Assembly: GCA_046075565.1 (NCBI GenBank)
Contig: JBJTQJ010000117.1
Span: 1-64,000 of the forward strand
Source: Verrucomicrobiales bacterium
Lineage (GTDB): Bacteria > Verrucomicrobiota > Verrucomicrobiia > Verrucomicrobiales > SLCJ01
Direction of reading: 5' to 3'
Length of the DNA stretch: 64,000 nucleotides
A program made the translations under genes and the position numbers. The notes below the pieces were generated by a model, which worked only from the letters and a program-made list of their open reading frames with translations, was not told where the DNA came from and did no database searches. Below are positions 17 through 49,330 of the stretch, one piece after another (position 1 is the first letter of the stretch; each line of letters starts with the position of its first letter).

Positions 17-40
17 CGGCACCGGAAGCGGTGCCGCTAC
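17..40 (-). repeat. REP-like palindrome (GTAG + hairpin)
   Basis: Minus strand reads GTAG-CGGCACCG-CTTC-CGGTGCCG: GTAG followed by a perfect 8-bp stem. Confidence 0.55.
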
Positions 41-230
41 GGGCATGGGTATCACCCAAAGATTGAAGAAATACCAAGGCGATTTTCCTTTGCGTTGATC
101 CTTAAATTGAGGCATATGCCTCGCCCGCTCGGACACACCCCATCGCTCGACAAGTTACGGACACGACCCTGCGGGATCTTGTCCCTCCGGTTGGCAGATG
201 GAGGCTGCAGCGCATGAACCGCCCATTGGC

Positions 231-256
231 AGCAACCACAGGATTGTGGTTGCTCC
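231..256 (-). repeat. REP-like palindrome (GGAG variant)
   Basis: Minus strand GG-AGCAACCACA-ATCC-TGTGGTTGCT, perfect 10-bp stem just downstream of the GH13 stop. Confidence 0.5.
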
Positions 257-283
257 GAACCAGAATCGTCCCCGCTGGTCACC

Positions 284-2146
284 TCATTTTCCGTCCACAT
301 CAAAAATCCAGGCGCTGGCGGGAGCTAAGTCTGGCATTGGCAGTCCTTCGCCGGAGAGAGCCGCAGACTCCGATCTGACTGAGGCTTCCGGATCGATCAG
401 GCATTTCCCGTTGATTCTCGCGTGACGGAGTCCGGCGCGTTCCTGAATTTCCGCCGGAATCTGGATCTTCACTCCGCGCAGAGTTTCGCTTGGGTGCAGG
501 TTCACGACGACGAGCACGGCGTGTCCGGTTTTCGGATTGGCCCGCAGATAGGCGTAAAGCCAGTAACCGCTGTCGGTTTCCCCATCGAGACGTCCGTAGG
601 CCGGGTTTTCGATATTCGCGCTGTTCAGCGGGAAAATCTCCCCGGCAAGGAAGGCCGGGTGTTGGATGGCCACGAGCAATTTGCCATACCAAGTGCGCAG
701 GGCGGCAGCATCCGGGACAAGTTTGGTCCCGTCGAATTTGCCGCCATTCCCCCACCCTTGCAGAGTTGGTAGCGACCAGTAGTCAAAAATGGTGGTCCGG
801 CCATCGTCGCCGGCGTAGCCCTCGGCGCCAGTGGCCGGTTCTCCGGTTTCCTGGCCGTGGTAGAGCATGACGGGGCCGCGTCCGAGTCCGAGCAGCAATG
901 CGGTTACGGGACGTCCGACTTTCGCGCCGTGTCCTCCCCATTGCCCGGGGTTGGCGAGCCTCACCTCGTCATGATTTTCGGCATAACGCAGCGAACGATG
1001 GAAAAGCGGTGCGGCATCCTGGCAGAGCGCTTCGATATCGTTGGCCCATTTTGGTCCGGTGAAGATCTCGTGCACGAGATCGTAAGTGGCGTCGTCATAA
1101 ACCGAGTCGAAGCCGTTTTCAAGCAGCGCTTCGAGCACATTGCCATCGGTGAGTTTGGCCGGGTCGTTATCGTAGGCTTCCGCGACAAAGAACACATCTT
1201 TCGAGCGACCGCGGGCTCGTTGGATGGACCAGGCCCAGAATTCCATCGGCACCATGTGGGCCATGTCCACTCGGAAACCATCGATGCCGAGGGCTTGCCA
1301 GTAGGCCAGAATCTGATCCATTTTCCGCCAGGTATCGGGCACGGTCTCCGGTGCGGCCTCGGGACCCGGCAAATGGGAAGTGTCGCGACCGCGGGTAAAG
1401 TCGTGTCCGTAGTTCAGTTTTACGGTTTCATACCAATCGCCATCGTTCGGTTGCCACGTGATGACGTTGTTGCCGGTTACCCGGCCGAAGTTTTTCTCCC
1501 CGTCGAAAAGCCCGTCGCAACCGGGGCGCCCGGCCGTTGGCAACCGCAGGGGTGGTCCTCCTCCAGGTTGTTCCGCACCGAGGTAGAAAAAGTTATTTCC
1601 CGAATCGAAGAAAACATCCTTCTTGTCATTGGCCCCGAAGCTCAGATCGGGTTTCACGTCCGACTGGTAGGCCCGCGAGACGTGGTTGGGCACGAAATCC
1701 ACCAGCACCTTGAGTCTGTAGCGGTGGGCGCGTTCGACGAGGGCCCGGAATTCCTTCAGCCGCTCGGTTGGATTGACCGCATAATCCGGGCAGACATCGA
1801 AGTAATCCTTGATGGCATAGGGGCTTCCAGCGAGGCCCTTGAGGATATCTGGATCGTCCCCCGGGCGTCCGGGATGTTCGGTCGCGCTGGCCTGTTCCAT
1901 CACACCGGTGAGCCAAACATGGGTAACACCGAACTTCTTCAATGAGGTTACTGCGGCGTCATTGATATCGTTGAACTTCCCGCAACCATTTTCCGCGATC
2001 GTGCCTCCCGGTTTGCGGGTATCGTTCGCATTGCCAAAGGTGCGCACCATCAATTGGTAGATGACGGGGCGGCTGGTTTCTCCGGCCGGGCAAAGTGATG
2101 ACATGGCCAGAAGGAGAACGGAGGTGGCGCAAAGAACCGGCTTCAT
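284..2146 (-). CDS. Secreted GH13 alpha-amylase family glycosidase
   Basis: Signal peptide; GH13 regions DFVPNH, GFRVDMAH (nucleophile), FVAEAY (acid/base), YAENHDE. Confidence 0.92.
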   Translation of the reverse strand: MKPVLCATSVLLLAMSSLCPAGETSRPVIYQLMVRTFGNANDTRKPGGTIAENGCGKFNDINDAAVTSLKKFGVTHVWLTGVMEQASATEHPGRPGDDPDILKGLAGSPYAIKDYFDVCPDYAVNPTERLKEFRALVERAHRYRLKVLVDFVPNHVSRAYQSDVKPDLSFGANDKKDVFFDSGNNFFYLGAEQPGGGPPLRLPTAGRPGCDGLFDGEKNFGRVTGNNVITWQPNDGDWYETVKLNYGHDFTRGRDTSHLPGPEAAPETVPDTWRKMDQILAYWQALGIDGFRVDMAHMVPMEFWAWSIQRARGRSKDVFFVAEAYDNDPAKLTDGNVLEALLENGFDSVYDDATYDLVHEIFTGPKWANDIEALCQDAAPLFHRSLRYAENHDEVRLANPGQWGGHGAKVGRPVTALLLGLGRGPVMLYHGQETGEPATGAEGYAGDDGRTTIFDYWSLPTLQGWGNGGKFDGTKLVPDAAALRTWYGKLLVAIQHPAFLAGEIFPLNSANIENPAYGRLDGETDSGYWLYAYLRANPKTGHAVLVVVNLHPSETLRGVKIQIPAEIQERAGLRHARINGKCLIDPEASVRSESAALSGEGLPMPDLAPASAWIFDVDGK

Positions 2147-17592: not shown

Positions 17593-18441
17593 TTAATCGG
17601 GCGGGGAAGCAGAAAAGCGCTCGTCCAGCCAGCGGTTCACGTTTTCCAGGAAGCGGCCTTCGAGCACACCGCAGTGACCGATTCCATCGAGGATGACCAA
17701 TTCCACGGGTCCGGCGGCGGCGGCGCGGAGTTGAGTGCTCATCGAAGCTGGAATGAGTTTGTCTTCGCCGCCATGGACAAGCAGGACTGGAACTTGCAAT
17801 TGCCGGAGGGCCGAGAGGTTGTCGAACCGGTCGCGCACAAGAAACCCGGGAGCCAGCCGCCGCCGGGCCATCGCCTCAACGCTCGTGTAGGATGCGACCA
17901 GAATCACGCCCGCGAATTTCCCCTCCGTTGCCAAGGTGGTGGCCACTCCAGAGCCGAGGGAAACCCCCAAGCCGATAATTGGTCCTTTCGCCTCGTCCTT
18001 CACTGCCACCAAGGCTTCACGGGCTTGGGCCAACATTCCTTCGCGGTTGGGCGGTCCCGGCACTCCACCGTAGCCGGGATATTCGGTGAGCAGCACCCCG
18101 TAGCCCATTTCCTTCCACACCGTGGCCAATTCCCACCAGTCCTCGATCAATTCCCCATTGCCATGGTAAATCGCCAGAACAGGATCTCCTTCCTTACCGG
18201 CAAACCACCAGGCTTTTCCCCCGCCGGAGAGTTGGAGGACTCGACCGCCGGACATCTGCAATTCGGCCGCAGACACATCCGGAGCCGTCCGAAACTGTCC
18301 GGGGAAGACCACCGAGCGCTGGAAGACCAACAGGAGGATCAGATACAACAAATAAAGCCGCCCTAGCCTGAAAAACCAGAGCCGCCAGCGCGAACGCGGG
18401 CGGCTATTCTTTGTTTCGGACGATGCCGGGGAATCCATCAC
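17593..18441 (-). CDS. Membrane-anchored alpha/beta hydrolase
   Basis: N-terminal TM, HGNGE, EYPGYG, GVSLG nucleophile elbow, HGGED, GH. Confidence 0.88.
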   Translation of the reverse strand: MMDSPASSETKNSRPRSRWRLWFFRLGRLYLLYLILLLVFQRSVVFPGQFRTAPDVSAAELQMSGGRVLQLSGGGKAWWFAGKEGDPVLAIYHGNGELIEDWWELATVWKEMGYGVLLTEYPGYGGVPGPPNREGMLAQAREALVAVKDEAKGPIIGLGVSLGSGVATTLATEGKFAGVILVASYTSVEAMARRRLAPGFLVRDRFDNLSALRQLQVPVLLVHGGEDKLIPASMSTQLRAAAAGPVELVILDGIGHCGVLEGRFLENVNRWLDERFSASPPD

Positions 18442-19937
18442 TTCTCGCCGCCGGTGCCGGGCAGGAAGCGGTAGTAGGCTTCGAGACTGAGGGTATTCAA
18501 GCAGAGACGGTAAATATCGGCGTCGCGACCACCGGCAGATGTTGACTGCGCCCCTTTGCCGAAGTTGCCTTCCTGTTTGTAGGTTCCGTCTTCATTCTGA
18601 TTGGTCAGCAGTTGATCCCGCCATTTCTTGTTCCACCGGTCCCAACTGGAACCGCCCTTTTGGAAAAGGGACAGGGTGGTGTAATACCATGCGTAGAGAT
18701 TGCAGGTCGGGGAATTGTAAACCGGCTCCATTTCTTTCGTCATCCAGCGGATGGCCTCGCGAGCCGGGCGGCTGTTTTCTTTGCCCCACATTTGGAAACA
18801 AAGGGCGCCGACGCCGACCAGTCGCTGCCCCGTGCTGCCTTTGCCCGTGTAACCGAAGGTTCCATCCTCGGCTTGGATTTCTTCGAGACGTTTGAGCGCA
18901 CGATCCACGGCCTTCTCGATGTCTTTTTTCTCGAATCCCGCGTGGGACGCGGCCTTGAGCGCCTGCACTTGCCAGCCGAGCACAGAGGTGTCGCCGGGGC
19001 GGCTGCTGGCCTTGTTGTAGTCATAGTCCCACGAACCACTCGGGTGCTGTCCATTCAGAATCATCTGCACGGCCTGGTTGCAGACCTCCTGCAGATTCGG
19101 GAAATCCATCTTCAATTCCTTCACGAAGGTGAGAGCTTCACAGAGGGCATAGGTGCCGATCCCGTGCTCATAGACCCAGCTATGGCCTCCGGACAAGGAG
19201 ATCTTGCCTTTCTGACTATTGCCCGTGTTGACAAGGAACGTGATGGCCTTGGTGACAGTCTCGCCATACTCCTGCGACTTCGGGGTTTCGCAGTGGCCCA
19301 GGAATGCGAGCAGGGCAAGGCCGGTCATCGACGCCTTGTATTGGTTTCCCCAAGAGCCGTCGGAATTCTGGTTCGCCTTCAGCCAACGCAGCGAGCGCAC
19401 GACCGCGGCTTCACATTCCTCATTTCCTCCGCCCTCGCGCAAACGCTTGAGGCGTTCCTGCGGTGTGCAACGACCTTTCATCGAGCCGGGCAATCCACCG
19501 AGACCGCCTTGGCCATCGCCCAAGCCGGAGCCGCCGAAGCCCATGCCAAGGCTCGTGCCCATGCCGATGTCGGCAATGGTGCTCTCCACCGGCTGCGTGG
19601 GGGTGAAAACGGTCGCCGTGGCGGAGTGGGTGGTGATGAGTTTGGCGCTGGAAGACGGAGACGAAGGCTTCGATTTCACCGTTTGTTGGGTGACCACCGG
19701 GGTCTCGATCGTGCCTTCGGTCGGAGCGAGGCTTTTCGCCTGAATCTCGGGAACGTCCTGCTGCAGAGCGGGCAAAATGATCAGAGTTAGAATCAAAACG
19801 GCAATGACATGCACCACAATCGTGATGACGACGGCAGACAATTTCCCGGCTTTTTCGCGTTTGCGGCGGATGGCATCGGCCTGCGCTAGGTTGTAGTGGG
19901 CGACTTCTTCGGCGTTATGGTATTGTTCCTGGTCCAT
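18438..19937 (-). CDS. Membrane-anchored prenyltransferase/squalene oxidase repeat protein (paralog 1)
   Basis: TM helix, low-complexity linker, QW-like repeats (NQNSDGSW, QHPSGSW, NQNEDG), MTGLALLAFLG, YYRFLP; start may be 19964. Confidence 0.85.
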   Translation of the reverse strand: MDQEQYHNAEEVAHYNLAQADAIRRKREKAGKLSAVVITIVVHVIAVLILTLIILPALQQDVPEIQAKSLAPTEGTIETPVVTQQTVKSKPSSPSSSAKLITTHSATATVFTPTQPVESTIADIGMGTSLGMGFGGSGLGDGQGGLGGLPGSMKGRCTPQERLKRLREGGGNEECEAAVVRSLRWLKANQNSDGSWGNQYKASMTGLALLAFLGHCETPKSQEYGETVTKAITFLVNTGNSQKGKISLSGGHSWVYEHGIGTYALCEALTFVKELKMDFPNLQEVCNQAVQMILNGQHPSGSWDYDYNKASSRPGDTSVLGWQVQALKAASHAGFEKKDIEKAVDRALKRLEEIQAEDGTFGYTGKGSTGQRLVGVGALCFQMWGKENSRPAREAIRWMTKEMEPVYNSPTCNLYAWYYTTLSLFQKGGSSWDRWNKKWRDQLLTNQNEDGTYKQEGNFGKGAQSTSAGGRDADIYRLCLNTLSLEAYYRFLPGTGGEK

Positions 19938-20130
19938 GGGTCGGTGCAATGTAGGGATTATCACGGCCAGAACCGGGGTGTAAAGCCGAATTCTTCCGAT
20001 TCATTCACCTCTGGAACGATTTTCCAGGCCATTTTGTTGGCGGTTTTTGCTAAAAATCCCGACTTCTGACCATGCCAAGAAAGAAACAGTGTTTTATTTA
20101 ACTTGGAATGAACCGAACCGCGCGGGTCGA

Positions 20131-21636
20131 TCAATTGCTTTCTCCGCCGGTGCCGGGCAGGAAGCGGTAGTAGGCCTCGAGGCTGAGGGCGTTCAAGCAG
20201 AGGCGGTAGATGTCCGCATCACGCCCACCGGCTGAAGTCGAGGTCGCGCCTTTGCCGAAGTTGCCTTCTTGTTTCCAGATGCCGTCCTCGTTCTGGTTGT
20301 CGAGTAGTTGGTCCCGCCATTTTTTGTTCCAGCGGTCCCACGTGGAGCCGCCTTTCTGGAACAAGCACAAGGTCGTGTAATACCAGGCGTAAAGATTGCA
20401 ATCCGGCGAATGATAGACCGGGTCCATTTCCTTCGACATCCAGCGGATGGCCTCACGAGCCGGGCGGCTGTTCTCTTTCCCCCACATCTGGAAGCAGAGG
20501 GCCCCCACACCCGCGAGACGTTGGTCGTTCGGACTCCCCTTGCCCGTGTAACCGAAAGTCCCGCTTTCGTTCTGGACTTGCTCGAGACGCTTGAGCGCGC
20601 GATCCACCGCCTTTTCAATGTCCTTCTTCTCTAAGCCGGCGTGGGAAGCAGCCTTGAGCGCCTGCACGTGCCAGCCAAAAATGGAGGTATCTCCGGGTCG
20701 GCTGCTCGCCTTGCTGTAATTGTAATCCCACGAACCGCTCGGGTGCTGTCCGTCGAGGACGATTTGCACCGCCTTTTCACACGTCTCCTGTAGGCTCGGA
20801 AACGGCATCTTGAGTTCTTTGATGAAGATGAGGGCCTCGCAGAGGGCATAGGTGCCAATGGCGTGCTCATAGACCCAGCCATGGCCCCCGATCATGGAGA
20901 GTTTTCCATTCTGGCCGTTGCCCATATTGACAAGGAATGTGATCGCCATGGTGACGGTCTGCCCATACTCCCGCGAGCGCGGGGTTTCGCAGTGGCCGAG
21001 GAACGCGAGCAGGGCCAGTCCGGTCATCGACGCCTTGTATTGCGTTCCCCAGGAGCCATCGGAATTCTGATTCGCCTTCAACCAACGCAGCGAACGCACG
21101 ACCGCGGCTTCACATTCTTCATTTCCCCCGCCCTCACGCAAACGCTTGAGACGTTCCTGTGTTGTGCATCGACCTTGAATGTCGGGAGGCAAATTCTCAA
21201 TTTCGTTCTGGCCGTCTCCGATGCCGTCGGGACCACCGAAACCCATACCCATGGCGGCGCCAGAACCAATCTGGGAAAGATTGCTCTGGATGGTTGGCGG
21301 AGCGAAGACGGGAGAAGAAGTGTTCGGCGCGGTGATCACCTTCATGCCCGTGGAAGGCGCCGTTGGCTTCGCCTTCGCCACCCGCAGATTGGGTGTGGAG
21401 GTCACTTGCTCTGTTGGCTCGAGCCTGATTTTTTCATCTATGATTTCCATGGCATCCTCCTGCAAGGCGGGCAAGAGGATCAAAGTCAGGAAGAGGATGG
21501 CGACGAGATGCACGGCGACCGTCACGATTAATGCCGAATACTTGCCGGCCTTCTCGCGTTGGCGGTGGAGGGCCTGGGCCCTTTCGAAATTGAAATGGGC
21601 GATGGACTCAGCATTGGCGTAGGTTGGCGATTCCAT
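20131..21636 (-). CDS. Membrane-anchored prenyltransferase/squalene oxidase repeat protein (paralog 2)
   Basis: Same architecture; C-terminal domain very similar to 18438-19937. Confidence 0.85.
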   Translation of the reverse strand: MESPTYANAESIAHFNFERAQALHRQREKAGKYSALIVTVAVHLVAILFLTLILLPALQEDAMEIIDEKIRLEPTEQVTSTPNLRVAKAKPTAPSTGMKVITAPNTSSPVFAPPTIQSNLSQIGSGAAMGMGFGGPDGIGDGQNEIENLPPDIQGRCTTQERLKRLREGGGNEECEAAVVRSLRWLKANQNSDGSWGTQYKASMTGLALLAFLGHCETPRSREYGQTVTMAITFLVNMGNGQNGKLSMIGGHGWVYEHAIGTYALCEALIFIKELKMPFPSLQETCEKAVQIVLDGQHPSGSWDYNYSKASSRPGDTSIFGWHVQALKAASHAGLEKKDIEKAVDRALKRLEQVQNESGTFGYTGKGSPNDQRLAGVGALCFQMWGKENSRPAREAIRWMSKEMDPVYHSPDCNLYAWYYTTLCLFQKGGSTWDRWNKKWRDQLLDNQNEDGIWKQEGNFGKGATSTSAGGRDADIYRLCLNALSLEAYYRFLPGTGGESN

Positions 21637-21829: not shown

Positions 21830-21939
21830 ATTGATTGAATTCCCTAGCTTGCGGGTCGAGTTGGAAACGCCATTCACCGTCGATCATGAAAACGATTGGC
21901 GCACCTGAAGCCGATCAACAAACGATGAAGAGGCATCAT
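21830..21939 (-). pseudogene. Possible remnant of the 5' end of a GH2-type glycosidase gene
   Basis: IDGEWRFQLDP resembles the (L)xGxWxFxxD first strand of GH2 sugar-binding domains; upstream ATG overlaps the esterase stop but is out of frame. Confidence 0.35.
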
Positions 21940-22760
21940 GGCACCTCCGTGGATCTTTCCCCCGCCTCTTTGCAGAGGAGTTCAATCAATGGAGCCGGAT
22001 CCAGCAAGCCGTGAGGGTGGTGGTTGCCTCCTTCTTTTGCGAACGTCTTCAACCGGCCTCCGGATTTTTCCCACAGTTCGATCATGGGCTTCGCGTTATC
22101 GACATAGGGAACCGTCTGGTCGGCCGTTCCATGAACCGAGATCAAAAAGACTCCATTCTTGATGGCGGGAGCCAGACCGTCGGTCGGCCGGATGGATTTT
22201 TCTATGGCTTCCTCATCGGAAGTGAACTTGAACTCGGTTTTGTAGAGCTCCCAGTCACGCTTGCTTCCCCCTCCCTTCTCCACAAGCTGGAGTCCACCGG
22301 GCCAGGAACGAATGTCACAGACCCCATTGTCCAGATAGAGCACACTCACGCGATCCGGATGCAGGCGGGTCCAGGCATTCACATAGAGCCCGCCGCGCGA
22401 GATCCCGAGCAGGGCGGGACGCGCGGCCAGTCCCCGTTTCCCGTGCAAGTGCTCATAGGTCTTTTCCCATGCAGCCATGGCACGTGGGGAACCGAACTGG
22501 TTGCTCACATTCACATACGCGACATGCCAGCCCTTGGCGAGCAGTCCACTTTCCAGGGTTTTCAAATGGCCGGCGAACTCCCCCACCCACAGCCACGGTT
22601 TGCCCGGAGCCGCTTCTGCGGGAACTTTCAATTGCAACGCCGTGCCGCCGATGTCAATTTTTTCAATCGTAAATGCCGGCGGGAGCGCCGGTTCATCCTT
22701 AGCGGGATAGGCAGGCAGGAGAAGAAGCGATGTCAACAAGCCGAGTAGATGGGTTTTCAT
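21936..22760 (-). CDS. Secreted alpha/beta hydrolase (putative carbohydrate esterase)
   Basis: Signal peptide, GISRGG nucleophile, HGTAD, NHHPHG. Confidence 0.82.
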   Translation of the reverse strand: MKTHLLGLLTSLLLLPAYPAKDEPALPPAFTIEKIDIGGTALQLKVPAEAAPGKPWLWVGEFAGHLKTLESGLLAKGWHVAYVNVSNQFGSPRAMAAWEKTYEHLHGKRGLAARPALLGISRGGLYVNAWTRLHPDRVSVLYLDNGVCDIRSWPGGLQLVEKGGGSKRDWELYKTEFKFTSDEEAIEKSIRPTDGLAPAIKNGVFLISVHGTADQTVPYVDNAKPMIELWEKSGGRLKTFAKEGGNHHPHGLLDPAPLIELLCKEAGERSTEVP

Positions 22761-22813: not shown

Positions 22814-24415
22814 TCATTTCGTTAGATCAAGCATGGCTTTACCCATCGCCTCGCCGATGAGCAGGAAAGACTCGGCGTTCTCATAAAAATCCCACTCTCT
22901 GCCGCCGGGAGACTCTTTCTTCGGAAAAAAGAATGGGATGGCTTCAATGGTGGCCACGCCTGGAATCGATTTTCCGGCTGCGAGTTGGGCATCGTAAACC
23001 TGGCGCTGGTCTGCGTTCATCTTTTCGCCATGCTGGCCGAGGGCCGCCACGACAAAGGGGAGGTTTGGATTCGAGAATTCTTTGCGAAGATCGGAGATCA
23101 AAGCGGAAAGGTTATTCTGGTAGGCGGCGGCAAATGCCGGCGATTGGGCGTCGGCGATACCTTGGAACCAGACAAAGCCGGCCAGCTCGGGCCGATGGCC
23201 GGAGAATGGAGGACAGTATCGGTCGACGTCCGCGAGCGCCGTCTTGATGGAATCCACGAGTTCCAGATACTCCTGGCCATTGAGCAGGTATTGTTTGAAG
23301 TCCACCCAGCTATCAACCATTCGTGCGCCCGTGCCCGAGTGTTCCCCATTGCCGGGATTCTTGGCCACGAATGCCTTGCCATCGAGTTTCTTCTTCACCT
23401 TTTCCCAATACGAGCCGGTGATGGAATCGCCGATGAACAAGACCCGTGGCAACGGGCGCGACGGGTTCTGGCGGTTCTTCAAAGCCTCAAGGACGAATTC
23501 CGTGACCTTGGGCGAAAGATCCCCGACGTCGTGAACATCAAGGGCTTTCGGTTTTCCCATGCGGCGGCATTCCGCATTGAGATCAACAATGATGACCCCA
23601 TTCTCGTTCATGATCTTGGCGGCAACCTCGTTGTATTTGTCAACCATGGCTCCGCCGGCATATCCCGGCGGGGTGTCTTCAAGAATCGGCGTGGTGCTGG
23701 CCCAGATGAGCGAGGCCTTGGTTTGCTTTAAACGGGCGACAATGGTGCGGAGATTTTTCTCGTATTCTTCAATCGGGATGCGGATGCTCCCCTGCCCGTT
23801 GTTAAATCGTTTTCCGGTCTTGTAGTCGATCGTCTGCTGGTCCCACACGCCGTGGTTGAAATGGATGACATCCCATCCGCCATCAAGATCGAGTCCGCCG
23901 CCACCGGTCGGGGATAGGAAGTCATAACCGAGCGAACGCGAGCCACGTCGGAACCAGATTTCGTGTTTCGTGGCGAAACGGATCAGCAGGACCGGCGCTT
24001 CGGTGGCTTCGCCAACCGTCTCGCCGAACATCAATTCGGCTCCGACACCAAAACCGCGCGGATCCGCCGAATCCACTGGCACACCGAGCAAGCGGGCCGG
24101 GTCGCGTGTGTTGTTCGAAAGCTGATGCGCATCGTAGAGAGCGACATCCGAGCGGGTCCTCCATTGGCCATCGTCATTCTTCAGGAAGGAAAAGCGCGGA
24201 TTCTCCTTCATCACATTGAGAAGGATGCCTGGCTTGGCGGCTGCTGCAGCCTGATCGATTTTTTTCTCGCCCGGACCGCGCGCCATCCCATCGATCGAAC
24301 CGGTGCGGAGAAAATTCTCATCCCCGGCGAGGACGAAGACCTTGAGTGGTTTATCGGCGGCGCTCGCGAAAGACGCTAAGCAACCGAAAGCGATGAGAGA
24401 GTGGAAGAAACGCAT
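22814..24415 (-). CDS. Secreted sialate-O-acetylesterase-like (SASA) protein containing a nested, circularly permuted SGNH hydrolase
   Basis: Host motifs VFVLAG, GAELMFG, PVLLIRFA, FVWFQG; insert WDVIHFNHG...DVH precedes LPRVLFIGDS. Confidence 0.8.
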   Translation of the reverse strand: MRFFHSLIAFGCLASFASAADKPLKVFVLAGDENFLRTGSIDGMARGPGEKKIDQAAAAAKPGILLNVMKENPRFSFLKNDDGQWRTRSDVALYDAHQLSNNTRDPARLLGVPVDSADPRGFGVGAELMFGETVGEATEAPVLLIRFATKHEIWFRRGSRSLGYDFLSPTGGGGLDLDGGWDVIHFNHGVWDQQTIDYKTGKRFNNGQGSIRIPIEEYEKNLRTIVARLKQTKASLIWASTTPILEDTPPGYAGGAMVDKYNEVAAKIMNENGVIIVDLNAECRRMGKPKALDVHDVGDLSPKVTEFVLEALKNRQNPSRPLPRVLFIGDSITGSYWEKVKKKLDGKAFVAKNPGNGEHSGTGARMVDSWVDFKQYLLNGQEYLELVDSIKTALADVDRYCPPFSGHRPELAGFVWFQGIADAQSPAFAAAYQNNLSALISDLRKEFSNPNLPFVVAALGQHGEKMNADQRQVYDAQLAAGKSIPGVATIEAIPFFFPKKESPGGREWDFYENAESFLLIGEAMGKAMLDLTK

Positions 24416-24446: not shown

Positions 24447-27260
24447 TCAGAGTTTTTCGCTACGGATGGTTTTGCTCTCCCCGTTGACCATGACTTTCAC
24501 ATCAGCGGGCTGAGGCGAACGGATTTTGAAATTCACCACTTTCCCCTTTTTCCATTCGAAATCGACTTGATGTCCGCCACGGGCGCGGAAGCCGGTCACT
24601 TTGCCCTCCGGCCAGACATCCGGCAGGGCGGGAAGCAGATGGATGATGCCCCCGTGGGTTTGCAGCAGCATTTCCGCGACGGCGGCGGTGCCACCGAAGT
24701 TTCCGTCAATCTGGAATGGCGGGTGCAGGCAGAAGAGATTCTGCCCTCCCTTCGCGATGAGCATGTTGAGCAGTTTGTGGGCGTGGTTGCCGTCGTGCAG
24801 GCGGGCCCAGAAATTCGATTTCCATGCCATCGACCATCCGGTGCTGGCATCGCCCCGGCGCTCCAGACTGATACGCGCGGCCTTGGCAAGCTCAGGTGTG
24901 GCCAACGGGGTAATCTCGTCGTGGGGATGCAATCCATAAAGATGCGAAACATGGCGGTGGTTGATCTCCGGCTCTTCGTAGTCTTCGAGCCATTCCATGA
25001 TCTGTCCGTGTTTCCCGATTCGGTTCGGAGGTAGTTTGGCAATGGTTTCGACGAGTTGTTTTCGGAATGCATCGTCGACTCCCAGGATTTCCGCGGCCTT
25101 GATGCAATTGCCGAACAGTTCGCGCAGAATCTGATTGTCCATGGTGGGCCCCATGCAGATCCGGGCCGTCTGCCCATCGGCGGTTTTGAATGAGTTCTCC
25201 GGAGAATTCGAGGGCGCGGTGACCAGATAGCCGGATTTCGGATCGGTGATGAGCATGTCGAGGAAAAACTCCGCCGAGCCCTTCATGATTGGGTAGGCGT
25301 ATTCGAGGAATTTCTTGTCGCGGTTATAGTCATAATGTTCCCACAAATGATCGCACAACCAAGGCGAACCGGTGGCCGTTGCCCCCCACCCCGCTTGTTC
25401 GCCCGGCGCGGTGAAACCCCAGACATTGGTGATCACGTGGGCCACCCATCCCTTCGCATTGTAGTATTCCTTCGCCGTGATGGCACCGGGTTCCTGCAGC
25501 GACTCGATGAGTTTGAACAAAGGCGTGTGGCAATCGCCAAGACCGGTGACTTCGGCCGGCCAGTAGTTCATCTGCACGTTGATGTCGATATGGTAGTCGC
25601 CATTCCATGGAGTTTGGATGCCTTCGGCCCAGATGCCCTGCAGGTTGGCGGGCATGGTGCCCGGACGCGAGCTGCCGATGAGCAAATAACGACCGCAGTT
25701 GAAATAAAGCGCTGCCAGCGAAGGGTCGGTGCCGCCCTTGGCGAGCGCGGCATGGCGCTGATCGGTCGGCAAGGCCGCGGTATTCGCGCTCTCGGACTTC
25801 CCATCATCCAGCCGAAGGCTCACCCGGTCAAAATAGGAGCGGTGTTCGGCGACGTGCGCGGCGCGGAGTTGCCCATACGATTTCTTTTCCGCTTTCTGGA
25901 TATCCTCCTTTGTGGCTTGCAACGGGTCGGCGGTATTGCGTCCCGCGAAGCCCTGGTAGTTGGTGCCGGCCGCCACCAGAATGACAACCTCATTGGCGGA
26001 GTCCACGATCACGTTGTTCCCTTCGGTCTTGACCGTGCCGCCGGATGGGATGGCGCGGAGGCGGGCGACAAACTTCATGCCTTCCACATCGGGGCTTCCG
26101 CTCAATGTGTTGCCGGTCATCAACAGCCCGGAGTCACCATCGGCGGCGGTTTCAAAGTTCTGCAAGCGGCTCAGCGTCGCCGTGAAGGATATCTTCCCGG
26201 GCTGGTCGGCGGAAAAACGGAAGGCCATCACCTGATCGACGGCGGTGGAAAAAGCCTCGCGCGTGTAAGTGACACCATTCTTCCGGTACGACACGGAAGC
26301 CACGGCATCACGCAAGTCGAGCGCCCGCCGGTAATTATCGACGCTCTCCGCCGGCTCCAGGGAAATGGAGACGGGCAACTGGCCTCGACCCCGGTAATTC
26401 GAACATTGGATGGCAATGAGATTGTCGCCTGTTTTGAGGAAACGGTTGATGTCGACGTTGAACAATTCGTGCCCGCTGGCCTGCCAGCCGGGAAGTTGCC
26501 CGACCATTTCGCCATTCACGAAGACTTGTCCCTGGCGTGCGGCGGAGTCGATGCGCAAGACACCGAGTTCGGACCGTCTGGCCTCCGACAAATTGAGGTG
26601 ATGGCGCAGAACGACACGGTTATCTTTCTCCAGTGTGCGCCCGCCAATCGTGGCCTTGCCATCGGCAATCTGATACTCGACCCAGCCGTTCTCATCGACC
26701 CCGGGCTTTACCAACCCGTCCATGACGCGGCCCACCTCGGCTCGTTGATCGCGGATATCGCCGGTAGCCGGTTCGATGAGCTTGTATCTCCAGTTGGGCA
26801 GCGGCTGCGAGGCTACATCCGATTTCCAGACCACATTGAGGTTTCCGAGTTCCTGGAAACATCCCCAGGGACCATTCGCTCCGCCTCTGGAGCCTCCGCC
26901 AGTGCAAGTGAACGTTTGATTGACCATCGCCTCTGCCTCCTCGTTTTTGCCGGCGAGGAGCAGCTCGCGGATTTTGGGCAGATTCTTCGAGGCATCCTTG
27001 CGGTTCCAATCCACGCGCGTGCCGGACCAGACAGATTCCTCGTTGAGGGCGATACGTTCACGGCCGATACCGCCGAAAATCATCGCGCCGAGGCGACCAT
27101 TGCCAATCGGCAGTGCCTCCATTTGCCAACTGGCGGCCGGTTTTTGATACCAAAGTGTTGTCGATGGATCAAAGCCGGTCTTCTCCTCGCCGCGGCAAAT
27201 GGTTACCGAGAGAAGGATGGCGGCGGCAATGAACGGAGATGAAGAAAAGCGCGCTTTCAT
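24447..27260 (-). CDS. GH95 alpha-L-fucosidase
   Basis: [60 protein letters not shown]. Confidence 0.94.
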
Positions 27261-30200
27261 GGATTCGTGGTTGGAAGTATAGCGGATTCGATGGATGCGG
27301 GTCCGAGCAGACCATTCTTTTGAGACAGATTGTCTTTGCCGGGAGAATACGGGATGGATGCGTGACTGAGACGCTTTCCGGGTGGCAAGGCGGCGTCTGC
27401 GGCCAATCTATTGTGCCACGAGTTGGTGACGCGGATACCAAGCGTGTTCTGCCCTTCGGCGACGAAGTCGGTGATATCGAGACGCCATGGCTTGGTCCAA
27501 ACGGTCCCGGCTGTCTTCCCATTCACCGTAACCGTGGCAATCACTCCCACGTCTCCCAGCGAAAGCATGGTTCGTTCGCCTTTCCCCGGTTTCGCGAGGG
27601 TGAATTTGGTTTCGTAGTCAGCCTGCCCCGAATAATGGCGAATGGACTCATTCTCATGCCGGGTCCAATCGAGCAAGGTGGTGAAATCGGTTTCCCCGGG
27701 GGCGCCTTGGCCATGGAAACGCACCTTCCAATCGCCATCGAGTGCGGCGATCGTCCGCATCGTCGGGCTATTCGTGGCGGCCGGGCCGACCACCTCCGGC
27801 CCGATGGCACGGCCGAAGACCACAAAGATGCTTTCGGAGGCATCGAGTTTGAGTGGAACGAGCGTGCGCCCGTCGCGTTGGCTGAATGCTGCCGCTGCGG
27901 ATATGGCACCGGAATCTGCATTCCACAATTCGGGTTGGCGTCCGATCACCCGCATGGATGCGGTGAACTCGACCGGAGTATCGGTGGTATTCGATAGGAA
28001 ATAGATTTCGTGCTCGGGCGATGTGCGGTGATGGAAAACGATGCCACCCTTTTTACCGATACCGATTTTTCCCGCTCCCGCTGCGGCGCAAAGCAGTGGC
28101 TGGTCGGCGAGAACCGTCACGTCAGGCTCAACCTTGAGATCGGCGAGCAGCGTTCCGAGATCGATGCCATCATGCACCTTGCCGCTGCCGAAGGCGTGGG
28201 TCTTTGGCGAACCGCCTTCGAATGCTCCCCAGACTTCACCGGCGATTTTTGCCAAATCCTGATCACTTGCGGGAAACCCTGCGAGCGATGGACTGGAAAC
28301 CGGTTTCGGTCCGAGCACGGTGGCGCCGTCACGAACGAGCCGCCGGATCGTATCGGCCACCTGCGGACGCATGATGGTTTGTTTGGGGAGGACAAGAACG
28401 GCATAGGAAGGGCCGTCGGGCACCGTGATCCGACCGTTCTTGACGGTGGCACGATTGATGAGCACATCGGAATTGATGTAATCGAAGTCATATCCGGCCG
28501 GCAGTTCCGGATCCCGAGGGCCTTGCATCGATGGGGCATTCTCTCCGATGTAGTAAGCGACATCGATGACGGGCACGCCTTGTTTGAGCAGCACCGAACA
28601 ACGGCGCGTGTAATCGATGAACGCCTTCGATTGCTCAAACCAGGTGTTGTGCCGGTTGAAAGGCGTGCCGAACCAGGCGGTGATACCTGGTTTGCGCTCG
28701 TCCGGTTGATGGATATACACGTGAAGGATCTGATGATTGACGCCGGCTCCATAGGCCCAATCGCACCATTGTTTCATCGAAGCCGGTGACTGCGTGAAAC
28801 TGCGGTTGGACGTGAAGGCTTCGGAGTAAACATCATTGCGTCCGTAAACATGGGAACAGCTCGAGGCGGCGCGGCATTCGATGTTATGGAGTGGCTCATT
28901 GTTTTCCCAGAACTCGGCCCCAACTTGATCGCTCTTCGAGCCATAAAACAAGAATTCCGAAGCAAACCCCCAGTGACCGTAATTTTCATGCCAGAGCGTG
29001 AGCTGGTTTTCGTTGGCCACTTCGCGTAATCCACCGACATATTCGGTGGCGATGGATTCCGAAATGAGATGCCGCCAGTCCCAGAGAAAACGTGTGGATA
29101 CTTCCGGACTATCCACGACCCTTCCGGTCAGACACGGCAAAAATCGGACGGGAGAGTATCCGTAACGTTTCTCGAACTTCTCCACCAGCCCGTCGGTCCA
29201 ATTCTGCGGCCCGGTTTCGTAGCTGTCGGCAATGACATACTTCAGCGCCTTCCGATCTTGCGGCGGCGTGCGGCGAAGAAATTCTCCCATCATACCGTCG
29301 AAAAGCGCGCGCACATGTTCGCGGCTCATTTTGTCCACTTCTAATCCCCTGCTCTCCGGGCTCGCGGGAGCGCACTGGGTCCCGATGGGAATCATGCCCG
29401 CGCGCATGACCACCCAACGTCCGGGAGGCGCGTCCCAGACCAACCGGCCTTTGGCGTCCATTTTGCCGGTGAGATTGATGACATTCGATGAACCTACCGC
29501 GCTTCCGGCGGCGACTTTTCCCTGCTCATTCCAAACATAGGAATCCCAGGGTGGCAATACCGAAGGACTCGTCTCGCCAAGCTGCTTGCGCACATATCCC
29601 GCGATGACGGCGCGGCGACTCAAGGCCAGCTTGGAAAAGGTGACCGGCTTGGTCGAAGTCAGGTTCACCCGCAGGTATCTCGCTTTCGTTTCCGGGAATG
29701 ACACGAGAAGCGGATCTGTATTGCGTGGTCCTTGGTGTCCGCGTTGCTCCACGTGGCGGGCATGCTCGCGGAAATTCCGACCATCATCGGAAATGGATAC
29801 CACGCAGGTCAGCGTATGGCCGAAGTCGCGCGTTTCCAATTTCAGGCTTTGCACCGCGCCCACTGCATCCTTCCGATCCAAGTCGATCTGCAGCGTTTTG
29901 GGCCCAACCTTAAATGGCCCCTTCGCTACGGGCGCTGGGCTGGAAATCTTGACCGAGCTCATGTCGATATCCGCCGACTCCTTCTCCGGTTGCTGGAAAG
30001 CGATCACCCGGACATCCTGGTAGTCTTTTTCCGTGAATTTCTCGCCGGTCGCGACGGGCTTGGAGCCATTGACCACCGGAAAGGTTTTGATCTCCGGCAC
30101 CGGAAGCGCGAGATCGACGCGTTTTCCACCTTCAACGACCGTCTCGCTGGCGGCGAGATAACGCATGGACTGTGAGGATTTCACCCACGGACCACCCGAC

Positions 30201-30556
30201 TGGGACCAACCGGGTGAGTTGAAAAAGCCGATCTCAACCCCGCAGCGATCCGCTTCTTTCACGGCCCATTGAAGAGCTTCCCACCAGGCATCGCTCATGA
30301 ATGGCACCTTGCCTACCGGCGTTTCCCAACGCGCGCCCTCCCCGAAGATATGGCCGATGTAGGCACGCCCGATCCCGACCTTGGCCATGGCTTCCAGGTC
30401 CCGCGTGATGCCTTCTTTGGTGACATTGTCATTGATCCAATACCAGTAACATCCCGGACGTGTGTCCGGCGCGGGATTCCGGAATGATGCATCCAAAGTT
30501 GGGGACGCGGATACTGTTGCAGCGGCGACCGCAGAAAAAATGAAAGTGCGGATCAT
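27257..30556 (-). CDS. GH106 alpha-L-rhamnosidase-like glycoside hydrolase
   Basis: [48 protein letters not shown]; start MIRTF gives a signal peptide. Confidence 0.88.
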
Positions 30557-30818
30557 GGCGAGGACCTCGGGTTGCGACGCGCTGGAACGGTGAACGGATG
30601 GTAAATCCACTTCGGATGGATACGCAGATCCGGCGGGACTCTTTCCACTGAAACCAATGCAATGGTGACTATCAATCTACCGGTTTGGCCAAAATTTCCA
30701 GCAGGTGGCGCATCTCATCGTCGAGGTCAGGATTGGGCAGGTTGGGATTGGATTCTGTGTTCACAACCGGTTTCTGAATGATTTCCTCGGGCTGGTTCCA
30801 CTATTTCCGAAAATTTTT

Positions 30819-41003: not shown

Positions 41004-44000
41004 ATGTATCCACGTCATCTCTTCGTCTGCCTGAGCCTATCCCTGCTCACAGCCCTCCCGACATTCGCCCAGGGAAAAGGAAAGAAGCTTTTCGGTGAAG
41101 GACACCCGTTTGCCGCCGAAGAACTGCCCGAAGGCGTGCTGAAGCAACAACTCCAGAAGCGCAATCCACGGGCGCGTGGCGAGGCCATGAAACGACTGCA
41201 CTCCTTTTCCTTCCCGGAGAAGGATGCCGCCAAATACCTCCGGGTCGATGATGATGGCGGGGTCTTTATTGTCTGCCCGATCAATGGATGTGAGTGTGAC
41301 GACCCGGCCCATAACCACGGGGATACCGCTCCCGCTCCGGAGAGTGCGGTTGGCCCATCGCCGGAGGCCGCGAATCCTTCCACCGAGAACATGCCCATCG
41401 GTGATGGCAGCAACGACCCCTTCAACCCCACGTCGTCCGTTCCCATCAGTTCACCTCCGGCATTCAATTCCAAACCCGGCGCTCCCTTCCACATTTACAT
41501 GGACTTCAACGGAGCCTATGTGACCGGCAAGGCATGGACTTACAGCGATGGCACCACGACGTGGAGCACATGGGATTGTGACGCATGGAGTAATGACACG
41601 GATCGCACCACCTTCACCACTTCGGAGCAACAGGATATCCGCCGCATGTGGGAACGCGTGGCGGAAGATTACGCTCCCTTCAATGTGAACGTGACCACCG
41701 ATGTTGCCTATGACCCGGTCAACTACACGGGCGACAAAAACAAGGTCGGCTGGCTTCTGACCACTCCGACGACCGACAAGAACGGCGTGCGCTGCCCCCA
41801 CTACGGCTACGGTGGTGTCGCCTACGTCGGCGTCTTCGGGAATTCGAACTACTTCTCCACCTACCAGCCCGCATGGGTGACGCCCATGGGTGTCGCCAAC
41901 ACGTCCGAGGCTGCCTCCCACGAAATGGGACACAACCTTGGTCTCAGCCACGATGGCCTCAACAGCGGAGCCGCGTATTACGGTGGCCACGCCGCTACCT
42001 CCAGCGCTCCTTCCTGGGGTCCCATCATGGGCACGGGCTACAATCGCAACGTGTCGCAATGGTCAAAAGCCAGCGAATATTACGGCGGCAACCAGACCCA
42101 GGACGACCTCACCCTCATTGCCAATCGCCTCACCTACCGTGCGGCAGACCACGGCTCGACCTTCGCCTCCGCCACACCATGGGTCCAACACCCCGTCAAC
42201 CAGCTCGGAGTGATTGAGAGAACCGGGCTGCAGGATGTTTTCACCTTTAACACAGGTGCCGGAACGGTCACTTTCAATGCCAGTGCCTATCGCTGCGATA
42301 ACCAGACATGGGGAGCAAATCTCGATATCACTCTAGAACTCTACAACTCCTCCCAAACCCTTGTAGCCTCCAGCAATCCGCTCGCGGATACCAATGCCTC
42401 CATCTCCACCTCTGTTCCTGCCGGCGTCTACTACGTAGTTGTCAAACCTACCGCTGCAGGCACTCCCCTCTCCACCACACCCTCCGGCTACAGCCTCTAT
42501 GGCTCGCTGGGCTTCTACTCCATCTCGGGCAGCTTCAGCCCGGTCAACAGCATCTTCCTCACTTCGCCCAATGGTGGAGAGACTTTAATCAAGTCCACGA
42601 CCAGCAACATTACCTGGACATCCGGCATGGGCGGAAATGTCCAGATCGAGTTGCTAAAAGGCGGTGTCCTCAACTCCACGATTACCTCCAGCACCGCCAA
42701 CAGCGGCTCTTTCGCTTGGAGCATTCCCTCCGGCTTGGCCAATGGCAACAATTACAAGATCAGAATCACCAGCATTGAAAGCCCGACTATTTCAGCCCAG
42801 AGTGCGGGCGATTTCAGCATCGCTACGGATCTCTTAGCCGATGCTCTTGACATCCAAGGCTATGCATGGAGCACCTCCGGCAACTTGCCCTGGTTCTCAC
42901 AAACCGCCGTCACCAATGACGGCGTCGATGCCGCGCAGAGTGGTGCCATCGATCACAACCAGACCAGTTCACTTCAAACCACCATCGTCGGCCCCGGCAC
43001 CATGACATTCAGGTGGCGCGTCTCATCAGAAAGCGGCTACGATTTCCTCCGCTTCTACATCAAAGATGTGGAGCAAACCGGTTCGCTCGCCCGCATTTCC
43101 GGCACGGTGAACTGGGTGCAAAAAACCGTCACCCTGCCCACCGGCACCAATACCGTGCGCTGGAGCTATACCAAGGACGGCAGTGTGGTCAGCGGCTCGG
43201 ATGCCGCATGGGTGGACCAGGTGACATTCACGCCGCAAACCGTGCCGGGAAGCCTCGCCGTTACCCCTGCTCCCGGTTTCTCGCCCTCAGGGAATTTCGG
43301 CGGGCCCTTCACTCCCTCGTCACAAGCCTACACCCTCAGCAATACGGGAGGCACATCCATCAACTGGACAGCCGCAAAGACCGCTGGCTGGATCGATCTC
43401 AGCGCCACCAGCGGCACTCTCGCTCCCGGAGCCAATACGAGCGTCTCTGTCACTCTCAACAGTGCCGCGAATACGCTCAACATCGGGAACTACAATGACA
43501 CCGTCACCTTCGCCAACACCACAAACGGAATCGGCGACACCAGTCGCGCTGTTTCGCTTACCGTCAACGCTGTTCCCGCCACCGTCACCCTTGGCAACTT
43601 GAATCAAACCTACGACGGCTTCTCGAAACCTGTTTCCGTCACCACCACTCCCGCTGGATTGGCCCACACCGTAACCTACAACGGATCTTCCACCGTGCCC
43701 ATCAACGCGGGCAGCTACGCCGTCGTCGCCACCATCACCGAGCCGAATTACACGGGAAGCGCCAGCGGCACGCTTGTCATTTCCTACAATGTCTCCTACC
43801 AAGGAAACGGCAACACCAGTGGCACAGCCCCGGCAAACCAATCCAAACTCCAGAATGTCAACCTTGCCCTGGCCACCAACACCGGAAGCCTTGTGAAATC
43901 AGGTTTCACACTCGTCGGCTGGAACACCGCTCCCGATGGCTCGGGCACCTCATATGCCCTCGGTTCCACCTACTCCGGCAACGCCAATCTTACCCTATAC

Positions 44001-49118: not shown

Positions 49119-49330
49119 ATCGCTCGCCTGCCCTGACGCCTTCTCCTACCTAGAGTTGAGGACTTCTTCTGCCCCCCCAGCCTCTCTTTCCTGAAAAGAT
49201 GGGACGGGAGGGCAGATATTTGTCCCTTTATGCGTTTTTTCTTGACGAGAAATCCTCCGATGTATACATCGGCAATACATGAAGGATTGTGGGTGCCCTG
49301 CAATCCCCCATGACACTCCTCCTCCGCCCA

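Follow-up and report, generated by a model that had tools for sequence, protein, structure and literature searches.

We identified, in a 64,000-nucleotide (nt) stretch of contig JBJTQJ010000117.1 from a Verrucomicrobiales bacterium (assembly GCA_046075565.1; the whole of this stretch is called the window below), a gene for what is probably a secreted, nested two-domain esterase, in which an SGNH domain of circularly permuted block order, the presumed enzyme, lies inside a dead SASA-type host domain. The gene occupies 22814..24415 on the minus strand (span including the stop codon; all features of the gene given below are on that strand) and encodes a protein of 533 amino acids (aa), P0001. An SGNH domain of the BT3161 type (residues 174-378) interrupts the SASA domain in the loop after host block II, and the new termini of the insert are located at its former helix-2/strand-3 loop.

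Permuted block order of the inserted domain

SGNH/GDSL domains normally carry their sequence blocks in the order I-II-III-V. Within the insert of P0001 (residues 174-378, 23282..23896) the order is III-V-I-II. Block III, WDVIHFNHGVWD (residues 181-192, 23840..23875), contains the motif WDVIHFNHG (23849..23875) and Asn187, a presumed oxyanion-hole residue, and is followed by block V, D293-V294-H295 (23531..23539), with the presumed general base His295. Next come the linker KNRQNPSRP (residues 313-321, 23453..23479), block I, LPRVLFIGDS (residues 322-331, 23423..23452), which ends in the presumed nucleophile Ser331, and block II, NPGNG (residues 353-357, 23345..23359), with Gly355 and Asn356 in the presumed oxyanion hole. 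A preliminary description of the gene, made from the nucleotide letters, had placed all of its motifs correctly to within one base. It had also reported an insertion of about 190 aa at 23300-23880. An insertion is indeed present, but its size is rather ~205 aa, at 23282-23896, because six SASA paralogs from the same genome place only 5-53 residues opposite residues 174-378 in a multiple alignment.

Pfam detected both families in P0001. The SASA profile matched residues 370-492 (profile positions 98-196 of 226, E 1.4e-16) with a score of 61.3 bits, which passes the gathering cut-off of 24.8, and Lipase_GDSL_2 matched in two stretches with a whole-protein E of 1.3e-10 and 42.5 bits against a cut-off of 32.9. 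The better of these two stretches covered residues 213-293 (profile positions 79-163 of 178). When the insert was scanned alone, Lipase_GDSL_2 scored 32.9 bits, exactly at the cut-off. NCBIfam gave no match to P0001.

We examined the permutation with a rotation test, in which a hidden Markov model (HMM) built from 59 canonical relatives was compared with the insert (residues 174-378) in its native and in a re-ordered form. The native insert matched in two pieces, with sequence positions 5-115 aligned to HMM positions 96-203 (132.3 bits) and sequence positions 140-202 aligned to HMM positions 36-98 (60.3 bits), and these two matches abut without loss or duplication of profile. Re-ordering, which the preliminary description had put forward as a check, turned the two swapped partial matches into a single co-linear one over HMM positions 42-204, with a score of 196.1 bits, while alternative rotation points split the match again. 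The whole-sequence score barely differed between the native (194.6 bits) and re-ordered (196.3 bits) forms and cannot separate them, because HMMER adds up domains. The evidence for permutation is the co-linearity, the profile coordinates and the single-domain score, not the summed score.

Comparison with intact proteins gave the same picture. In a canonical paralog on contig C25, a segment corresponding to blocks I-II (~322-371 of P0001, 44% identity) is followed nine codons on by the segment from block III onward (~181-280, 40% identity), and a second paralog from the same genome, on contig C38, has the same canonical arrangement. The profile of the 59 canonical relatives aligned co-linearly, over its whole length, with 4h08, the structure of BT3161 from Bacteroides thetaiotaomicron (E 1.6e-31). 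The profile of the nested family aligned with the same chain with its order swapped, chain residues 19-50 to profile positions 322-353 and chain residues 74-162 to profile positions 183-283. Judged by these profile matches, which go beyond the motifs on which the order III-V-I-II had been proposed, the insert represents an entire SGNH domain whose blocks are circularly permuted.

The linker had been suggested to join the former termini of the domain, and profile coordinates do abut there (at ~residues 313-322). A profile-profile match (hhalign) between the family and canonical alignments stops at residue 324, from which it follows that the old C-terminus and the old N-terminus are fused in KNRQNPSRP; residue 19 of 4h08 is aligned to family profile position 322.

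The insert modelled alone reached a predicted local distance difference test (pLDDT) of 90.0 and a predicted template modelling score (pTM) of 0.89, and its four blocks had pLDDT values of ~85-98. In a Foldseek search with the insert alone, 4h08 was the sole match at E <= 0.001. Sequential aligners fitted SGNH structures only to residues 7..145 of the insert model, and what matched in the targets was their C-terminal two thirds (for example 1vjg 73..205, 7ddy 81..221, 3rjt 74..212; Z ~8). These structural matches, which come from a predicted model, agree with a permuted domain and are consistent with it, but are not decisive and do not amount to proof.

Host residue loss and the presumed active site

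The insert divides the host into an N-terminal part (residues 22-173, 23897..24352), which comprises strand 1 with block I and strand 2 with block II and is co-linear with SASA paralogs of the same genome, and a C-terminal part (residues 379-533, 22817..23281), which comprises helix 2 and strands 3-5 and alone scored 59 bits against Pfam SASA. Pfam returned only noise on the N-terminal 175 aa alone, and the SASA nature of this part was therefore established through paralogs and fold. By tblastn, residues 63-172 and 382-531 of P0001 matched adjacent DNA of a paralog on contig C104, separated by ~11 codons, and both host parts likewise matched adjacent DNA in the paralogs on C95, C78 and C108. 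Identity between the host and the paralogs on these four contigs was 29-40%, and that of the C-terminal part was 35-40% (C104, C108). The 3.9-Mb genome to which the window belongs (G000) contains 27 SASA-profile matches, many of them split by insertions of varying length (C119, C15, C78, C108), which suggests that the SASA esterase family is markedly expanded and diversified in this genome.

The full-length AlphaFold2 (AF2) model had a pLDDT of 87.6 and a pTM of 0.84. VIA-align superposed it on the SASA esterase 2apj with a Z of 23.3 and a root-mean-square deviation (rmsd) of 3.4 over 232 of 244 residues, within the range 22..533, and on 1zmb with a Z of 22.5 and 218 aligned residues; the ranges started at residue 22 or 23 and ended at 532 or 533. 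Because the superposition spans residues 22..533, the N- and C-terminal parts make up one compact domain. Foldseek with the full model gave only fragmentary, high-rmsd matches, which is what a discontinuous, permuted chain would lead one to expect.

Since host and insert are homologous five-stranded folds, one can conceive of a protein without permutation or insertion, made of two SGNH-like hybrids in tandem, each in normal order: one would cover residues 22-300, with host strands 1-2 and insert strands 3-5, and the other residues 320-533, with insert strands 1-2 and host strands 3-5. Each half does have five strands in canonical order, and residues 311-533 gave a weak co-linear match to Lipase_GDSL_2 (17-175 to profile 1-136, E 0.003). 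We rejected this arrangement as extremely improbable, given that the 232 residues of 2apj fit one compact domain, that the insert alone folds as a single domain (pLDDT 90), that the segment pairs are 30-50% identical to intact single domains, and given the outcome of the rotation test. The nested reading is the one that we follow below.

The host blocks differ from those of the paralogs at catalytic positions. Host block I reads LAGDENF (24311..24331) opposite LAGQSNM, so that compared with six paralogs the Gln is replaced by Asp32 and the nucleophile Ser by Glu33. Block II remains as GSRSL (residues 158-162, 23930..23944; G(N/G)(R/H/T)SL in the paralogs) and is directly preceded by a family-specific 8-residue insertion, KHEIWFRR, while block III reads WFQGIADA (23147..23170) opposite W(F/W)QG(H/E)KD. 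The degenerate block V, EWDFYENAES (22868..22897), lies opposite HYN.NAETY and has Asp509 at the position of the catalytic His of the six paralogs.

We counted residue conservation over 124 members of the nested family. Among the 118 members that are ungapped there, all have Asp32, and position 33 is Glu in 112, Asp in 6 and Ser in none. Of the 124 members, 71 have Asp at position 509, 35 are gapped there, 10 have Cys and 2 have His. Since both the nucleophile (Ser to Glu33) and the base (His to Asp509) have been lost, the host is a pseudo-esterase. The alignment thus bears out the earlier view of a domain that is SASA-type at both ends, lacks its serine motif and has no His in block V.

The insert presents the opposite pattern. 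S331, H295, N187 and N356 are present in 124 of 124 members, as are H185, G189, D192, V294 and G329, and D330 and G355 are found in 123 and 122 members, respectively. Columns with at least 95% conservation made up 36% of the insert, compared with 15% in one host part and 19% in the other, and mean identity to P0001 was 0.71 for the insert and 0.59 and 0.58 for the host parts. Because S331, H295, N187 and N356 are invariant and the host is without Ser, the insert carries the only complete Ser/His/oxyanion set, and by this measure it is presumably the insert that supplies catalysis. In the site that we envisage, Ser331 would act as nucleophile and His295 as base, Gly355/Asn356 and Asn187 would form the oxyanion hole, and position 293 (Asn or Asp), which precedes His295 by two residues, would provide the (N/D)-x-His spacing of the water-mediated triad of CE20.

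The conserved residues of the host also admit a reading in which both pockets work, the remodelled host pocket being either a specific sugar- or cation-binding site, which would position the polymer for the insert, or the seat of a second catalytic activity that does not use Ser. Such a protein would be bifunctional or processive instead of an enzyme on an inert scaffold, and Arg160, Gln418 and Asp422 would be retained beside Asp32-Glu33. We hold this to be rather unlikely. The counts for Asp32 (118/118) and Glu33 (112/118, the other 6 being Asp) speak for it, as do the almost or fully invariant G158, R160, G419 and D422 (the last two in 124/124 members) and the conserved His151, Trp154 and Phe155 in the 8-residue insertion beside block II. 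The host parts also retain 58-59% mean identity to P0001, and the insert joins the host at the active-site side of the sheet, just past the block II loop. Yet conservation is clearly lower in the host than in the insert, the position of the former His is not conserved, and the acidic pair could merely stabilize the interface with the insert. In the nested two-domain esterase that we favour, the dead host would serve as a platform or as a substrate-binding module.

P0001 begins with a predicted Sec-type signal peptide (residues 1-20, 24356..24415), read from the sequence as a hydrophobic core followed by ASA right ahead of ADKP. A helix is predicted over this region at low pLDDT, and its sequence is not conserved across the family.

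Distribution, origin and gene neighbourhood

A homolog search of 5.8 billion proteins gave 464 matches at E <= 0.001, of which 120, P0001 among them, were listed. Among the 120 matches listed, PF03629 and PF13472 occur together in 117, and the remaining 3 have PF03629 alone. The full-length architecture, at 47-83% identity, was present in all but ~10 shorter, partly covering entries of the 119 others listed, and the listed homologs stem from many independent contigs and sources. Named metagenome-assembled genomes (MAGs) with the nested gene were assigned to Planctomycetota, Lentisphaeria, Kiritimatiellia, Verrucomicrobiota (Luteolibacter, Akkermansiaceae) and the 'PVC group'. Homologs with the same block order, which the preliminary description had recommended looking for, therefore recur both among named MAGs and among the listed matches. 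We rejected an assembly artefact for this reason: mis-assembly is excluded because the full-length architecture recurs across independent contigs and named MAGs. In the phylum of the window itself the nested gene is rare, with 2 of 301 sampled genomes positive at E <= 1e-40, the genome of the window included.

A group of longer nested esterases (P0094, P0113, P0114, P0122 and P0125; ~690-700 aa) has an extra insertion of ~150 aa shortly after host block I, for which Pfam gave no match. This site is also occupied by an insertion in the uninterrupted SASA paralogs on C104 and C108. The host lineage seems prone to taking up inserts.

We searched residues 156-405 against 1.84 billion cluster representatives, which yielded 1844 matches at E <= 0.001, and classed the best 150 of these by the order of four P0001 pieces. 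The canonical order, I-II then III-V, was found in 118 of the best 150, a tandem SGNH-SGNH arrangement in 11, I-II/III-V/III-V in 4 and III-V/I-II/III-V in 2. Nested proteins accounted for 5 full forms and 8 fragments. One further match, P0236, has a canonical SGNH domain followed by a canonical SASA domain, and another, P0128, has 250 aa with a signal peptide and III-V-I-II, and no SASA parts. The best match that was not nested was the tandem protein P0124 (450 aa; E 4.4e-66, 53% identity), the middle of which is co-linear with the insert. Identity between the insert and the canonical and tandem members was 40-53%.

We built FastTree trees from the III-V segments (n=92) and the I-II segments (n=93) of single proteins (<=300 aa), tandem proteins, nested proteins and P0128, with other classes and segments that were too short left out. 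The nested inserts formed one clade in both trees (support 0.94 and 0.998), and P0128 was placed as sister to this clade or inside it. P0128 is a possible free-standing permutant by its sequence. It is kept as a lead only, because it is a single sequence from one metagenome contig of 1130 nt and could be a fragment or chimera. The data fit permutation by duplication and truncation with a single origin, although a fit of sequences is not proof of the order of events. We infer that a tandem SGNH-SGNH duplication may have come first, and that its middle, blocks III-V of copy 1 with blocks I-II of copy 2, would then have entered the SASA loop.

A bolder version of this origin is that the family is a living record of permutation and nesting, and that the Asp32-Glu33 pocket of the host is a new site that cooperates with the insert. 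We would give this version only a minor chance. If it were true, single, tandem, possibly free-standing permuted (P0128) and nested forms would all be extant, and the pocket under the insertion point would bind a glycan or cation or would catalyse, making a pseudoenzyme-enzyme pair in one chain.

The esterase gene lies in a series of four genes on the same strand, GH106, GH95, esterase and alpha/beta-hydrolase, with gaps of -4, 31 and 53 nt. The gene of the GH106 alpha-L-rhamnosidase family (27257..30610, minus strand; Glyco_hydro_106, E 1e-208) overlaps by 4 nt that of a GH95 glycoside hydrolase of the fucosidase/galactosidase family (24447..27260, minus strand; Glyco_hydro_95_cat, E 3.3e-183), which lies upstream of the esterase gene, 31 nt off. 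Downstream, 53 nt off, is a gene for a secreted alpha/beta-hydrolase of 274 aa (21936..22760, minus strand; weak Peptidase_S9, E 0.0028). Two SQHop-cyclase-like proteins and another alpha/beta-hydrolase are encoded beyond it. A scan of promoters and terminators was not above shuffles (6 versus 4.5 and 20 versus 16.5).

The 274-aa hydrolase is homologous to the C-terminal domain of a canonical SGNH-alpha/beta-hydrolase fusion on C25 (27% identity over 239 aa, E 6e-20). This fusion gene is ~2 kb from a host-like SASA gene (C25 51039-52559 and 47889-49094), and in an Anaerolineales MAG (locus L024, 7398-10381) an SGNH-S9 fusion comes immediately after a SASA gene. From these two neighbourhoods it appears that the SGNH and SASA families and the alpha/beta-hydrolase travel together. 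The two SQHop-cyclase-like genes (18438-19964 and 20131-21636, both minus strand) encode paralogous proteins of ~500 aa with weak matches to the C-terminal domain of squalene-hopene cyclase (alpha/alpha-toroid type), and one of the two also has a weak GH88 match; these paralogs may be uncharacterised glycan-active enzymes. Elsewhere in the window, on the plus strand, are a gene for a protein of 2704 aa that contains Big_9, cadherin-like and MBG repeats (41004-49118) and, after it, a 1331-aa open reading frame (ORF) with no Pfam match (49289-53284).

Given these neighbours, we infer that the enzyme would strip O-acetyl groups off a glycan that contains rhamnose and fucose and so enable the exo-glycosidases of families GH106 and GH95. 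That the insert instead acts as an acyltransferase, or as an enzyme of the lipase or lysophospholipase type, seems quite improbable to us. Names such as 'lysophospholipase L1-like esterase' and 'acyl-CoA thioesterase-1' in the source records would favour it, and SGNH domains include acyltransferases (PMC9487903). These names are automatic, however, and the gene sits with GH106 and GH95, its relatives occur beside SASA esterases, GH29, GH95 and sulfatases, and both the host and its paralogs fall within a family of carbohydrate esterases.

We scanned nine related loci, covering 62 of 79 called ORFs; the 17 left out were mostly distal, together with nearer small or overlapping ones. The nested gene is present in eight of the nine loci, L024 being the one without it. 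Further SASA genes occur in 3 of the 8 nested loci, and five are found in L024. Locus L021 contains GH95, GH29 and two sulfatases. A gene for a large DUF6288 protein lies within ~3.5 kb of the nested gene in 5 of the 8 nested loci and is directly adjacent in 3. These very large proteins, of ~1000-1400 aa with PDZ and HEAT matches, are encoded at L014 2021-5116, L015 9549-13085, L019 4367-7471, L020 906-4541 and L021 11833-16074. DUF6288 was not detected among the window ORFs scanned, and none of the papers searched mentions it. At L013 (357-1963), in a Planctomycetota MAG that is the closest named relative, the nested esterase adjoins a PT-HINT/AHH nuclease toxin fragment and an Imm11 immunity gene, and the gene context is not conserved.

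Several observations weigh against the explanation that we favour. The Asp of the canonical DxxH motif is absent from the insert: position 292 varies, and at position 293 the 124 members have either Asn (104) or Asp (20), so that of the DVH that had been read as block V the His stands (H295, 124/124) and the Asp does not. A classical Ser-His-Asp triad is not expected, because position 293 is mostly Asn and the DxxH Asp position is variable. By analogy, a Ser-His dyad or a water-mediated triad is plausible, since the Asp/Asn-x-His spacing of CE20 is described as operating through a bridging water (PMC12313940) and Escherichia coli NanS as working without a catalytic acid (PMC9063846). On its own the insert gives only modest structural matches (Z ~8), which tie with HAD-like or generic Rossmann-like folds, and the PDB title of BT3161 reads only 'putative hydrolase'. 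The gene context varies: GH95 is adjacent only in the window and at L021, and no glycan genes appear among the scanned ORFs of 3 of the 8 nested loci. In the III-V tree, repeat 1 of P0124 is the next sister, with weak support (0.61). Finally, the invariant Asp32-Glu33 of the host pocket, a feature of the family alignment, argues that the host may be more than an inert scaffold.

Significance and comparison with known systems

SGNH permutation (AlgX, AlgJ, PatB1) and SASA-type domain insertion (CE20) are each already known. The combination of a new break point, nesting in a homologous domain and a host pseudo-enzyme is apparently undescribed. A literature search that covered few subscription journals found no permutant of the order N-H-S-G, no SGNH domain nested in a homologous SGNH-superfamily domain and no description of the nested family of P0001. 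This family, which is uncharacterised and environmentally widespread in the PVC group, represents a clean natural case of permutation, nesting and loss of host catalytic residues, with its presumed intermediates extant. Because canonical, tandem and nested relatives are available, it could be used to test the duplication-and-truncation model as well as domain-insertion design. For annotation, the automatic name 'sialate O-acetylesterase' rests on a domain incapable of serine-esterase chemistry. For glycobiology, the gene would add an uncharacterised deacetylation step to PVC-group glycan-degradation loci encoding GH95, GH106, GH29 and sulfatases.

The closest known relatives of the insert are the BT3161-type proteins (4h08; Lipase_GDSL_2), which are of the same sequence family and share GDSI, NxGN, WDVIHFNxG and (D/N)VH with it. 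Canonical members run I-II-III-V and are free-standing or terminally fused, whereas the insert runs III-V-I-II and is nested. The (D/N)VH motif of the insert subfamily is common to canonical relatives; 4h08 itself has a DxxH (GDGTH) instead. The host has the same fold and sequence family as the SASA esterases (PF03629; 2apj, 1zmb) and the paralogs in its own genome. Unlike P0001, which has GDENF, Asp509 and a 205-aa insert after block II, the SASA paralogs keep GQSNM and the block V His.

The SGNH-like acetyltransferases AlgX, AlgJ and PatB1 (DHHW) are also natural SGNH permutants with a DxH block V (PMC9487903). Their order is H-S-G-N (V-I-II-III), which differs in its break point from the N-H-S-G (III-V-I-II) of the insert, and AlgX/DHHW proteins have a Tyr in block III and an acetyltransferase context, whereas the insert has Asn187. 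AlgX, AlgJ and PatB1 are not nested in a homologous domain, unlike the insert. Pfam gave no ALGX match in P0001 at E <= 10.

The tandem SGNH-SGNH protein P0124 consists of the same domain family as the insert, and the SGNH-SASA fusion P0236 combines both families of P0001 by ordinary fusion. In the tandem proteins and in P0236, every domain is complete, in canonical order and not nested.

CE20 enzymes with an ancillary domain (9ega, 9h4u, 7kmm) likewise have a SASA-like SGNH domain split by an insert over the active-site face, and they share a D/N-x-H motif (PMC12313940). In CE20 catalysis lies with the host, and the inserted domain, a beta-sandwich, is non-catalytic, whereas in P0001 the host is dead and the insert is presumed to be the enzyme. 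CE20 also has N- and C-terminal flanking beta-sandwiches; none is predicted in P0001, where the insert is alpha/beta. Another nested esterase arrangement is a CE4 domain inside a carbohydrate-binding module (PMC11713874). Haemagglutinin-esterase(-fusion) proteins also hold an SGNH esterase in a nested, discontinuous arrangement with a glycan-binding module (PMC3779223). There a lectin is inserted into an active esterase, whereas in P0001 a presumed active esterase lies inside a dead one.

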